Positions 33,009 to 37,205 of a DNA stretch of 64,000 nucleotides are shown piece by piece (position 1 is the stretch's first letter; each line of letters begins with the position of its first letter). Location: assembly GCF_054482595.1 (NCBI RefSeq), contig NZ_CM137008.1; one strand, 5' to 3'. A program made the position numbers and the translations under genes. A model generated the notes under the pieces. That model did not search any database and was not told the origin of the DNA. It was given only the letters and a program-made list of their open reading frames with translations.

Positions 33009-33959
33009 ATGGCTATGTATCAGAACATGCTCGTTGTTATCGATCCTAACCAGGACGACCAACCAGCATTGCGGCGAGCTGTTTATTTACATCAACGGAT
33101 TGGTGGCAAAATTAAAGCCTTTTTGCCGATCTATGACTTCTCATACGAAATGACCACCCTGCTCTCCCCGGACGAACGTACCGCTATGCGTCAGGGCGTC
33201 ATCAGCCAGCGTACAGCCTGGATCCACGAGCAGGCAAAATATTATCTCAATGCTGGCGTTCCCATTGAAATTAAAGTGGTCTGGCATAACCGTCCCTTCG
33301 AAGCCATCATTCAGGAAGTGATCAGCGGCGGGCACGATTTGGTGCTAAAAATGGCGCACCAACATGACCGTCTGGAAGCGGTGATTTTTACGCCAACGGA
33401 CTGGCATCTGTTACGCAAATGCCCAAGCCCGGTGTGGATGGTGAAAGACCAGCCGTGGCCGGAAGGAGGCAAGGCGCTGGTGGCGGTGAATCTCGCCAGT
33501 GAAGAGCCGTATCATAATGCGCTCAATGAAAAACTGGTCAAAGAGACGATCGAACTGGCAGAACAAGTCAACCATACCGAAGTTCATCTGGTTGGCGCTT
33601 ATCCGGTAACGCCAATTAATATCGCGATTGAACTGCCGGAATTTGATCCGAGCGTTTATAACGATGCCATTCGTGGGCAACATTTGCTGGCAATGAAAGC
33701 TCTGCGGCAGAAATTCGGCATTAATGAAAACATGACGCACGTAGAAAAAGGTCTGCCAGAAGAGGTGATTCCTGATTTGGCGGAGCACTTACAGGCGGGG
33801 ATTGTGGTTCTGGGCACGGTAGGACGCACCGGTATTTCAGCAGCATTCCTCGGCAACACGGCGGAACAGGTGATTGATCATCTTCGCTGCGATCTGTTGG
33901 TCATTAAACCTGACCAGTATCAGACACCCGTTGAACTGGATGACGAAGAAGACGATTAA
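33009..33959 (+). CDS. uspE: Universal stress protein E (tandem Usp domains)
   Basis: ORF track 32982..33959; start at [12 protein letters not shown] gives 316 aa. Confidence 0.9.
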
Positions 33960-33978
33960 CGACTCTTCAATAACTGAC

Positions 33979-34008
33979 AAGGCCCGAGTTATCGGGCCTA
34001 TTTTTTAC
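33979..34008 (+). terminator. Intrinsic terminator after uspE, abutting the ynaJ stop
   Basis: ggcccgagttatcgggcc followed by tatttttt. Confidence 0.65.
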
Positions 34009-34266
34009 TTACTGCTCTTCGCCGCCAAGGAAATAAATTCCCAACGGGATTGCCAGCAACACAGTAAAGACCAGGCTATAAACAAAAATCATCGATGACT
34101 GAATCACATACATTGATGTCGTCCACTCAGACAGCGGAATATTGTACTGTTCTATAACGCCGCCGATAGTCGCGCGAGTCACAACCGACGCCGCAATAAT
34201 GAAAACCGCCAACAAACCAAAGAGAAATTTCTTCCCTTTCGCTGACTTCAGTTTCGCCATAATCAT
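34009..34266 (-). CDS. ynaJ: Small inner-membrane protein (DUF2534)
   Basis: 85 aa; two hydrophobic helices; synteny. Confidence 0.8.
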   Translation of the reverse strand: MIMAKLKSAKGKKFLFGLLAVFIIAASVVTRATIGGVIEQYNIPLSEWTTSMYVIQSSMIFVYSLVFTVLLAIPLGIYFLGGEEQ

Positions 34267-34509
34267 GATGTAATCCTTGTGCAGACAAATTTCTTGTTAC
34301 CTAAACGTAACAATACCATGACATTTCACCGTTGTCTGCTCTGAAAACCTCACCTCTTAGCTGGATTTACAATCAACGCATTGATTAGTTAGCTAATATT
34401 GCTACTTACTTCCCTGACTATTGATGATCTGAATGAATTGTCGCGGTAAAATAGCCCCGCCAGGGGTTTCCGGCATGACGACAATTATCTGGAGGAGCCT
34501 GATAAAACA

Positions 34510-35541
34510 ATGATCGCTGAACTGTTTACAAATAATGCGCTTAATCTGGTCATTATTTTCGGTAGCTGCGCAGCATTGATTCTGATGAGCTTTTGGTTTC
34601 GCCGCGGAAATCGTAAAAGAAAAGGTTTTTTATTCCATGCGGTGCAATTTTTAATCTACACCATAATTATCAGTGCTGTTGGTAGCATTATTAATTATGT
34701 TATAGAAAACTATAAACTCAAATTTATCACCCCAGGCGTTATCGATTTTATCTGTACGTCCCTGATTGCGGTTATTCTGACGATTAAGCTATTTTTGCTG
34801 ATTAATCAGTTTGAAAAACAGCAGATTAAAAAAGGTCGCGATATCACCAGTGCGCGGATTATGTCGCGCATTATCAAAATCACCATTATTGTGGTGCTTG
34901 TTCTGCTTTATGGCGAACATTTCGGCATGAGCCTTTCTGGCTTGCTGACCTTTGGTGGTATTGGTGGTCTGGCTGTCGGTATGGCCGGTAAAGATATTCT
35001 GAGTAATTTCTTTTCCGGGATCATGCTCTATTTCGACCGTCCTTTCAGTATTGGCGACTGGATCCGTTCACCGGACAGAAATATCGAAGGTACAGTAGCG
35101 GAAATTGGCTGGCGAATTACCAAAATTACGACCTTTGATAATCGTCCATTGTACGTACCGAACTCGCTGTTTTCGTCGATCAGCGTAGAAAACCCAGGAC
35201 GAATGACCAACCGCCGCATTACCACGACCATTGGTTTACGTTATGAGGATGCGGCAAAAGTGGGCGTTATTGTCGAAGCCGTACGTGAGATGCTGAAAAA
35301 TCACCCGGCCATCGACCAGCGACAAACCTTACTGGTTTATTTCAACCAGTTTGCCGACTCGTCATTGAATATTATGGTTTATTGCTTTACCAAAACCACG
35401 GTATGGGCTGAATGGCTTGCTGCACAGCAAGACGTTTATTTGAAGATTATCGATATTGTGCAGTCACACGGCGCGGACTTTGCCTTCCCCAGCCAGACGC
35501 TGTATATGGATAACATTACACCGCAGGAACAGGGGCGCTAA
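34510..35541 (+). CDS. ynaI: MscS-family mechanosensitive channel
   Basis: 343 aa; multiple N-terminal TM helices and MscS-like C-terminal domain. Confidence 0.9.
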
Positions 35542-35591
35542 ATCAGACATCACTGGCGTTATCCACAAGGGTAACGCCAGTTCCCATCACA

Positions 35592-37205
35592 TCAATGCTT
35601 CACAATATACATAGTCCGGCTGTACGCCACATCTTCCGGGTTATTAATGGGATAACCTTTCAGCCACGGCTTGATTAATCGTCCATTGGTATATTGATAA
35701 ATTGGTGCAATCGGTGCTTGCTCCATGAGGATTTTTTCTGCCGCGTTGTAATCGGCATTACGCGCTTTAACGGTATTTTCCGTCGATGCCTGGGCCAGAA
35801 CTTTGTCGTATGCCGGATTGTTAAAGCGTGAAATATTTCCTGAATGCGTTGACGTTAATAATGTCAGGAAAGTGGAGGGTTCATTATAATCCCCCACCCA
35901 TGAGGCGCGGATAACATCAAAATTGCCGGTGTTACGGCTATCGATATAGGTTTTCCATTCCTGATTTTGCAATTTAACATCTACGCCAAGGTTCTTTTTC
36001 CACATCGATGCTACAGCAATCGCAATTTTTTGATGGTTTTCTGAAGTGTTATACAAAAGCGTCAGCTTCAGCGGTTTTCGCGGACCATAACCAGCTGCGC
36101 TCAACAAAGTTTTTGCCTGCGCATTCAGTTCTTCCTGACTCATTTGTTCAAACGGCGAAGGTTCCGGCGTAAATCCGGCGGTAACATCTGGTGTAAAATG
36201 CCACGCTGGCTTTTCGCCCGTCCCTAATACTTTTTCGGTCATCAGGCGGCGATCTATCGTCATACTTAATGCCAGACGAACGCGCTGATCTGCCGTCGGC
36301 CCTTTTTGCGTGTTAAACGCATAATAATAGGTCCCGAGCTGCGGCGGCGTATAAACCTGCCCCGGAATATCCTTCAACAGCTTCTGATACATATTTTTCG
36401 GGAAGGATTCGGTGATATCAATATCCCCCGCGAGGTAACGCTTAGTGGCTGCGGATTCCTGATTAATTGGCAGGAAGGTCACTTTTTGCAGTACCGTTTT
36501 GGCGTTATCCCAATAATGGGTATTCGGTACCACGACCAGTTTTTCATTGACTACGCGTTCTTTAAGAACATAAGCGCCATTGCCGATCAGATTTCCGGGT
36601 TTCGTCCACTCTTTACCGCTTTCTACGTTGGCTTTTTGCACCGGGAAGAAGGCAAAGTTAGCGGTTAAATTCACAAACCACGGCAACGGTTTATCAAGCT
36701 GAATTTTCAAGGTATGGGCATCAACTGCGGTGACGCCAAGCTGGTCAGGCGTAGCTTTACCATCAATAATCGCCTGTGCGTTGTTGATTCCCGCCAGCGC
36801 GGCAAACCATGCAAATGGCGATAGCGTTTTCGGGTCCACCAGACGTTGCCAGCTGTAGACAAAATCTTGCGCCGTTACCGGTGTGCCATCCGCCCATTTT
36901 GCGTTATCGCGCAGGGTAAAAGTCCAGATACGGTTGTCATTACTTTTCCACTGAGTCGCAACGCCGGGGACAATCTCCCCTTTCTCGTTCTGATTCACCA
37001 GTCCTTCAAACAGATCGCGAATGACCTGAATCTCTGGCAGGCCCACGGCTTTAGCGGGATCCAGCGACGCAGGCTCATCTTTAATGTGGCGCACCAGCTC
37101 CTGCTTCTCTGCCAGTACTGTGCCGCTCGGAACTTCTGCAGCATACGAAAGAGAAATGCTGCTGACCAACAGCGCACAACACGTGACTGAAACAGAGTGC
37201 TTCAT
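35592..37205 (-). CDS. mppA: Periplasmic murein tripeptide-binding protein (OppA paralog)
   Basis: ORF track 35592..37226; start at MKHSVSVTCCALLVSSISLSYA gives 537 aa; SBP family 5. Confidence 0.9.
   Translation of the reverse strand: MKHSVSVTCCALLVSSISLSYAAEVPSGTVLAEKQELVRHIKDEPASLDPAKAVGLPEIQVIRDLFEGLVNQNEKGEIVPGVATQWKSNDNRIWTFTLRDNAKWADGTPVTAQDFVYSWQRLVDPKTLSPFAWFAALAGINNAQAIIDGKATPDQLGVTAVDAHTLKIQLDKPLPWFVNLTANFAFFPVQKANVESGKEWTKPGNLIGNGAYVLKERVVNEKLVVVPNTHYWDNAKTVLQKVTFLPINQESAATKRYLAGDIDITESFPKNMYQKLLKDIPGQVYTPPQLGTYYYAFNTQKGPTADQRVRLALSMTIDRRLMTEKVLGTGEKPAWHFTPDVTAGFTPEPSPFEQMSQEELNAQAKTLLSAAGYGPRKPLKLTLLYNTSENHQKIAIAVASMWKKNLGVDVKLQNQEWKTYIDSRNTGNFDVIRASWVGDYNEPSTFLTLLTSTHSGNISRFNNPAYDKVLAQASTENTVKARNADYNAAEKILMEQAPIAPIYQYTNGRLIKPWLKGYPINNPEDVAYSRTMYIVKH

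Follow-up and report, generated by a model that had tools for sequence, protein, structure and literature searches.

IHF sites such as lambda H' and the ilvPG upstream site carry a 13-bp core, and those upstream of promoters have an A+T-rich flank on one side, lie 70–80 bp upstream of sigma70 promoters and adjoin an easily melted segment. An IHF-induced bend 70–80 bp upstream of a sigma70 promoter is indeed a familiar arrangement. At divergent promoters, class I activator sites (CRP near -72.5/-82.5) are single and roughly equidistant from the two starts, their arms being conserved and their spacer free, and the FNR box, TTGAT-N4-ATCAA, is built from two pentamers spaced by 4 bp. The hot spots of IS5 upstream of glpFK, flhDC, fucAO and bglGFB have YTAR targets in destabilised DNA, with an influence of IHF (PMC11677980).

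We analysed a dyad lying between the divergent genes ynaJ and ynaI of E. coli, in a window of 64,000 nucleotides (the whole stretch of DNA under analysis). The dyad shares with the IHF sites the exact 13-bp core, here on both strands, as well as the distance to the promoters, the easily melted neighbour and perhaps the one-sided A+T-rich flank; however, IHF has no need of the palindromic form of this core, and no K-12 ChIP-chip occupancy is seen at the dyad in Myers 2013. As with the class I sites, it is single and roughly equidistant from both starts (~-76 and ~-80), and its arms are conserved around a free spacer, but the starts are here predicted ones and the factor would be a hypothetical one. 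It also has the two pentamers and the 4-bp spacing of the FNR box, but in everted order, and K-12 has no FNR ChIP peak at ynaJ or ynaI. The tetramer TTAG (34389–34392), into which IS5 has inserted in K-12, is like the IS5 hot spots in its 4-bp duplication, its unstable duplex and the adjoining IHF-like sequence, but differs from them in that two independent events were found among 5426 genomes, with no sign of selection or gene activation.

The ynaJ-ynaI locus

The neighbourhood of the dyad is the E. coli fnr-uspE-ynaJ-ynaI-mppA region, and in strain XH990 the locus is 100% identical and has the same genes in its RefSeq annotation. The minus-strand ynaJ (34009–34266) encodes an 85-aa DUF2534 inner-membrane protein, on which the ORF list and the RefSeq annotations of XH990 and K-12 agree, and its homologues carry PF10749. 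On the plus strand, ynaI (34510–35541), supported by the ORF list, the annotation and the orthologues found, encodes a 343-aa MscS-like low-conductance mechanosensitive channel. The divergent intergenic region between them (34267–34509) comprises 243 bp with 41% G+C and contains no insertion sequence, so that the coordinates, the divergent arrangement and the absence of an IS given in a preliminary description all hold. This IS-free state is the rule in E. coli and no oddity: unlike in K-12, the region is in one piece in 5055 of the 5422 complete E. coli genomes (~93%). Its length of ~243–250 bp is kept in Escherichia, Citrobacter and Salmonella.

Several minor features of the locus were also noted. 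Over the region, identity to the window is 99.2% for most E. coli genomes, equivalent to two mismatches; the window has A at 34398 and 34409, where K-12 and the other fetched E. coli have G and C. The change at 34398 converts TAATGT into TAATAT, a -10-like hexamer 9 bp to the right of the dyad, with which no convincing -35 could be paired. Between the convergent uspE and ynaJ, a hairpin AGGCCCGAGTTATCGGGCCT with T-runs on both sides (33980–33999) is a bidirectional terminator already described for ynaJ-uspE, which has served to study collisions of RNA polymerase (bioRxiv 10.1101/2022.10.23.513370).

Sequence of the dyad and its chance expectation

The dyad, aatcaacgcattgatt (34371–34386), consists of the arms AATCAA and TTGATT around CGCA, with the core ATCAA-N4-TTGAT at 34372–34385 and its centre at 34378.5. 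Although it had been taken for a perfect 16-bp palindrome, its reverse complement is AATCAATGCGTTGATT, and pair 7/10 is a C/A mismatch, which leaves seven of the eight pairs. The palindromic octamer said to follow it, TTAGCTAA, is indeed present (34389–34396) and perfect, but does not adjoin the dyad directly, as AG intervenes; it consists of two back-to-back IS5 target tetramers, TTAG and CTAA. The 21-bp segment 34380–34400, which covers the right arm of the dyad together with a TTAG/TTAG/CTAA cluster (YTAR sites at 34385, 34389 and 34393), is the least stable duplex of 34200–34560, with a nearest-neighbour free energy of -21.1 kcal/mol that falls in the top 0.6% of the 64-kb window.

Taken by itself, the palindrome is unremarkable, because its frequency lies within chance expectation. 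Against a baseline of first-order Markov shuffles, the window contains 34 16-mers with at least 7/8 pairs, compared with 30.4 +/- 5.3 in the shuffles, and in a 243-bp sequence of the same composition, one or more such 16-mers are expected with P = 0.09, and 6-bp arms with any spacer of 0–10 with P = 0.41. As a single strand, the dyad forms a weak hairpin (-3.3 kcal/mol, z = -1.7), on which grounds we rejected a cruciform or hairpin reading, and a search of 33800–34800 gave no Rfam match at E <= 1, on which grounds we rejected an RNA element; a structural or RNA role of the dyad is therefore unlikely. We likewise rejected the arms as promoter elements: TTGATT could provide back-to-back -35 boxes, but no acceptable -10 lies at 16–18 bp on either side, and the promoter scan called no promoter at the dyad.

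Conservation of the dyad

Of 5426 E. coli genomes, 5183–5184 are identical over the 41 bp at 34352–34392, which says little because identity across the whole region is 97.9% or more. Two E. coli variants with one mismatch were fetched, one carrying a SNP in the dyad spacer (34379 C>T) and the other a change outside the dyad. The comparison across Escherichia was more informative about the two parts of the element. The dyad reads ATCAA CGCA TTGAT in E. coli and MOD1-EC7003, ATCAA CCCA TTGAT in E69, ATCAA CTCG TTGAT in E1V33 and E. whittamii, and ATCAA TCTA TTGAT in E. marmotae and PTSH01, so that both arms are intact in seven Escherichia lineages, cryptic clades among them; two more carry a single arm change, namely SCPM-O-B-8794 (ATCAG CAGA TTGAT) and E. 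albertii (ACCAA TATA TTGAT). This pattern lies within the most variable part of the region (34340–34391), whose left flank cannot be aligned between haplotypes. Eight of the ten arm positions are invariant, against 18 of the 52 columns of 34340–34391 (hypergeometric P = 0.0017, a post hoc test picked after looking at the data, with ~6 independent lineages carrying the dyad), and the remaining two arm positions are kept in six of seven sequences, with the spacers CGCA, CCCA, CTCG, TCTA and TATA.

Outside these lineages, no dyad-like sequence was found in the orthologous region of E. fergusonii, S. enterica, S. arizonae/diarizonae or any of the 18 Citrobacter-group sequences. Conservation across enterobacterial ynaI promoters, which had been proposed as a check, is thus not borne out, as the dyad is missing in E. 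fergusonii, Salmonella and Citrobacter. From these alignments the dyad is a lineage-specific, moderately constrained two-part element, and not an enterobacterial feature. Arms that are kept while the spacer and flanks change would fit a bipartite site contacted by protein. The suggestion of a dimeric transcription-factor site is supported in part: the kept arms and free spacer make a protein site plausible, but the palindrome is imperfect.

The E69 and SCPM alleles were sought among RefSeq E. coli and not found, so these haplotypes belong to separate clades. Immediately left of the dyad, at 34347–34370, Escherichia has two haplotypes that cannot be aligned with each other: CTCACCTCTTAGCTGGATTTAC occurs in E. 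coli, SCPM and E. albertii-like sequences, and a ACGAGATTGTTGTCGTTCAAAT-like form in E69, E1V33, E. whittamii and E. marmotae. The alignment suggests replacement or recombination here, and not point substitution.

Promoters on both sides of the dyad

Aligned over 26 genomes of Escherichia, Citrobacter and Salmonella, the region showed two strongly conserved blocks, one on each promoter side. For ynaJ, we predict a sigma70 promoter on the minus strand (34310–34338), with the -35 element CAGACA (34333–34338), a 17-bp spacer and the extended -10 element TGgTATTGT (34310–34318), giving a predicted start at ~34302. On this side, TGTCTGC and AACAATACCATGACA / (G)TAACAATACCATGACA are nearly invariant across the 26 aligned sequences; a simple scan did not call the promoter, because 8 of the 12 hexamer positions match. 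For ynaI, the predicted plus-strand -10 element TAAAAT (34447–34452), with a predicted start at ~34459, is invariant in 26/26 aligned sequences, also in E. fergusonii and S. enterica, and the conserved block ATGATCTGA (34424–34432) lies in the -35 region. Measured from its centre, the dyad would thus stand ~76 bp upstream of the start predicted for ynaJ and ~80 bp upstream of the one predicted for ynaI.

Published K-12 sigma70 ChIP-seq data show a peak labelled ynaJ at 1395358–1395363 (Myers 2013 Tables S1/S2, PMC3688515) and another at 1393982 labelled ynaI/insH-4 (Myers 2013, PMC3688515). The former lies ~26–31 bp upstream of the ynaJ ATG. Mapped through the K-12 junctions, on absolute K-12 gene coordinates that we take to be correct and that the table labels constrain to within ~90 bp, both peaks fall within 10–20 bp of the predicted starts. 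Conservation and sigma70 occupancy together place the two promoters, and the earlier assignment of a divergent promoter region is confirmed by conserved elements on both sides of the dyad and by a K-12 peak at each promoter. Sigma70 occupancy at ynaJ was 1130 aerobically and 120 anaerobically (Myers 2013, PMC3688515), that is, ~9-fold lower under the anaerobic condition.

A second dyad, TTGTTAC-CTAAAC-GTAACAA (34294–34313), with perfect 7-bp arms around N6, overlaps the predicted -10 element and start of ynaJ. It is better conserved than the 16-mer: its core GTTA(C)...(T)AAC is kept in Escherichia, Citrobacter and Salmonella around a varying 6-bp spacer, and its left arm is not explained by the promoter hexamers. 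This dyad may be a candidate operator at a promoter with the anaerobic decrease just given, and we could match no factor to it.

On the ynaI side, GATC (34426–34429, a Dam site) lies inside ATGATCTGA in E. coli, most Citrobacter and Salmonella, and is GATA in several Escherichia clades. An inverted repeat, AATTGTCG/CGACAATT around CCCCGCCAGGGG (34436–34486), stands upstream of the ynaI ribosome-binding site with a folding energy of -23.6 kcal/mol (z = -1.8) and includes the ynaI -10 hexamer. We rejected it as a leader structure on the z score, on the position of its left arm upstream of the predicted start, and on substitutions in SCPM and E. albertii that break the inner stem without compensation. 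A terminator-like call on the minus strand (34475–34458) was dropped on the same grounds.

Which protein, if any, would use the dyad

We regard the dyad as a probable binding site, of an ordinary kind, for a regulatory or DNA-bending protein. We tentatively place first, at somewhat less than an even chance, a lineage-specific site for IHF or another architectural protein, because the IHF core consensus WATCAANNNNTTR is matched at all 13 positions on both strands, as AATCAACGCATTG on the plus strand (34371–34383) and AATCAATGCGTTG on the minus strand (34374–34386). The window holds eight exact WATCAANNNNTTR matches where 3.2 +/- 1.7 are expected, so roughly half of them exceed chance. The 20 bp 5' of the core contain 14/20 A+T for the minus-strand site and 11/20 for the plus-strand site, with no long A-tract. 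IHF would bind midway between the divergent sigma70 promoters and would bend the DNA sharply between them, and this bend would tune one or both promoters. The IS5 insertion in K-12 keeps the dyad joined to ynaJ but separates it from ynaI by 1.2 kb. That a protein binds here, that the protein is IHF and that transcription is affected are all points that we infer.

Occupancy data bear on this reading. Table S4 of Myers 2013 (PMC3688515), which is one IHF dataset (K-12, ChIP-chip, anaerobic glucose minimal medium, array resolution), lists no IHF region between 1393174 and 1402582, where the dyad would lie at ~1395277, and Kasho 2021 has no entry for ynaJ or ynaI. The absent ChIP-chip peak weakens the assignment to IHF without refuting it; in K-12, the terminal repeat of IS5 replaces the A+T-rich flank of the minus-strand IHF-like site. 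No match to the IHF consensus was found in the whole orthologous region of E. fergusonii, Salmonella and Citrobacter, so any role would be dispensable and lineage-specific. Moreover, all ten arm positions are conserved, when an IHF site in one orientation needs only eight, and such full conservation would fit a symmetric dimer slightly better than IHF. The nearest K-12 IHF ChIP-chip region of the same Table S4, 1392853–1393174, corresponds to ~35282–35603 of the window, that is, to the 3' end of ynaI and the convergent ynaI/mppA junction, where the window has no exact IHF consensus.

Next to IHF binding we set the less probable, but serious, view that the dyad has no specific function and resembles a palindrome by chance, in the A+T-rich centre of the intergenic region, its persistence in Escherichia reflecting shared ancestry and the few lineages sampled. 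The shuffles described above (34 vs 30.4 +/- 5.3; P = 0.09) produce palindromes of equal quality as often, the dyad is absent from E. fergusonii, Salmonella and Citrobacter though both promoters are kept there, and the K-12 tables show neither IHF nor FNR occupancy. K-12 also tolerates IS5 2 bp away, and ynaI has a (0,0) architecture there according to Reg-Seq. Against a chance origin, the arms stay invariant amid the most variable segment, where four spacers occur and the left flanks cannot be aligned, and the exact IHF core on both strands would be a further coincidence.

An operator for a symmetric dimeric factor other than IHF, at about -76/-80 and acting on ynaJ, ynaI or both (a class-I-type activator common to the two divergent promoters would be an example), appears unlikely, though not negligible. 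The dyad has the dyad symmetry, conserved arms and unconstrained spacer of a symmetric operator: both 5-bp arms, ten positions, are fully kept around a free 4-bp spacer. Helix-turn-helix dimers use a geometry like its own, with half-site centres 9 bp apart. The missing IHF ChIP-chip peak in K-12 and the rough equidistance from both predicted starts would likewise suit such a factor. However, we know of no E. coli regulator whose motif matches the dyad, a text search of a literature collection for ATCAA-N4-TTGAT in five written forms gave no match, and Reg-Seq assigned ynaI no regulator site in K-12, though IS5 removes the dyad from that construct. It would also be a coincidence for the dyad of an unrelated factor to reproduce the IHF core exactly.

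Among named regulators, spacing or sequence led us to reject the LacI/PurR-type, LysR (T-N11-A) and SlyA (TTAGCAAGCTAA) patterns, and Fis was rejected for lack of a match to GNNYANNNNNTRNNC. The YdeO box, ATTTCA, is unrelated to the dyad, though ynaI responds weakly in arrays.

Far less probable is a reading without a discrete operator, in which the dyad belongs to a nucleation zone for H-NS or another nucleoid protein, or to a melting zone sensitive to supercoiling, and in which it would be the unstable, A+T-rich duplex itself that is conserved. K-12 H-NS ChIP-chip regions do cover the position of the dyad aerobically (1394844–1396955), the locally least stable duplex lies at its right arm, and in the alleles of E69, E1V33 and E. 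whittamii this arm continues as TTGATAAATT, which is close to TCGATAAATT, the high-affinity motif of H-NS. However, a feature driven by composition would not keep ten specific positions, C and G included, while its neighbours change, and the expression of ynaJ in K-12 ranks among the highest in its neighbourhood, so the gene is not silenced.

For an FNR dimer, the everted order ATCAA...TTGAT would put the recognition sequences on the wrong sides. A site of the CRP/FNR family is thus scarcely credible and was rejected, in spite of pentamers and N4 spacing identical to those of the FNR box, the nearby fnr gene, and the lower anaerobic signal of ynaJ, which was scored as FNR-repressed in one RNA-seq comparison, since the FNR peak table (S5) and the predicted-site table (S6) of Myers 2013 have no entry for ynaJ or ynaI, which occur only in its sigma70 and expression tables. 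The half-site order had been correctly given as the reverse of an FNR box in the preliminary description, but with no FNR ChIP entry for either gene the comparison proves spurious.

IS5 insertion in K-12 and its consequences

The copy of IS5 reported between ynaJ and ynaI in K-12 is confirmed by its junctions and is already listed in the literature (PMC11677980, Table 1). The element, 1195 bp long, lies at TTAG (34389–34392), 2 bp from the dyad, and has duplicated 4 bp of its target; the K-12 intergenic region accordingly measures 1442 bp (243 + 1195 + 4). The left junction reads TTGATTAG followed by TTAG, and the right junction TTAG followed by CTAATG; written with the IS5 ends, the order is CATTGATTAG, TTAG, GGAAGGTGCGAA through IS5 to TTCGCACCTTCC, TTAG and CTAATG. 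Reported IS5 targets are YTAR tetramers in destabilised DNA, influenced by IHF (PMC11677980). A YTAR tetramer is duplicated at 34389–34392, and the unstable duplex with three such sites within the 21-mer 34380–34400 fits these targets. The sampled genomes with the K-12 junction, ER1709, DOC14 and HB101, are all laboratory strains, in a count blurred by IS5 copies elsewhere.

Since IS5 lies 2 bp from the dyad, statements on ynaI regulation based on K-12, including those from Reg-Seq, qPCR surveys and ChIP maps, concern a promoter truncated at ~-67. Reg-Seq found ynaI without regulator sites in K-12, where the dyad sits 1.2 kb from the gene. We consider it quite improbable that the dyad is a regulator operator specific to the E. 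coli/E. marmotae/E. albertii lineage, or a required IHF-dependent element, that drives both ynaI and ynaJ in wild E. coli and from which IS5 cuts off the K-12 ynaI; if this were true, the K-12 picture of ynaI, as the least expressed mechanosensitive-channel gene with no Reg-Seq sites, would be an artefact of the laboratory strain and not a property of the species. If the dyad works as a site for IHF or a regulator, it would be one more promoter-upstream site of E. coli, of modest importance. The dyad is ordinary, and its sole wider relevance is that IS5 in K-12 truncates the natural ynaI upstream region at ~-67. A K-12 strain cured of IS5 has already been built (PMC11677980).

The second insertion was found in FDAARGOS_943, whose genome has 32 copies of a different IS5-family element (~0.9 kb), one of them at TA(G) (34386–34388), 3 bp from the K-12 site. 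The same genome has a 10-bp deletion (ATTGATGATC) at 34420–34429, through which the ynaI -35 region has lost its conserved ATGATC block, and IS elements have also hit its mppA and its ogt flank. Within the same 1.5 kb, IS1 interrupts the ynaJ coding sequence in the clinical isolate P24_WM1_05.20, as another independent IS event.
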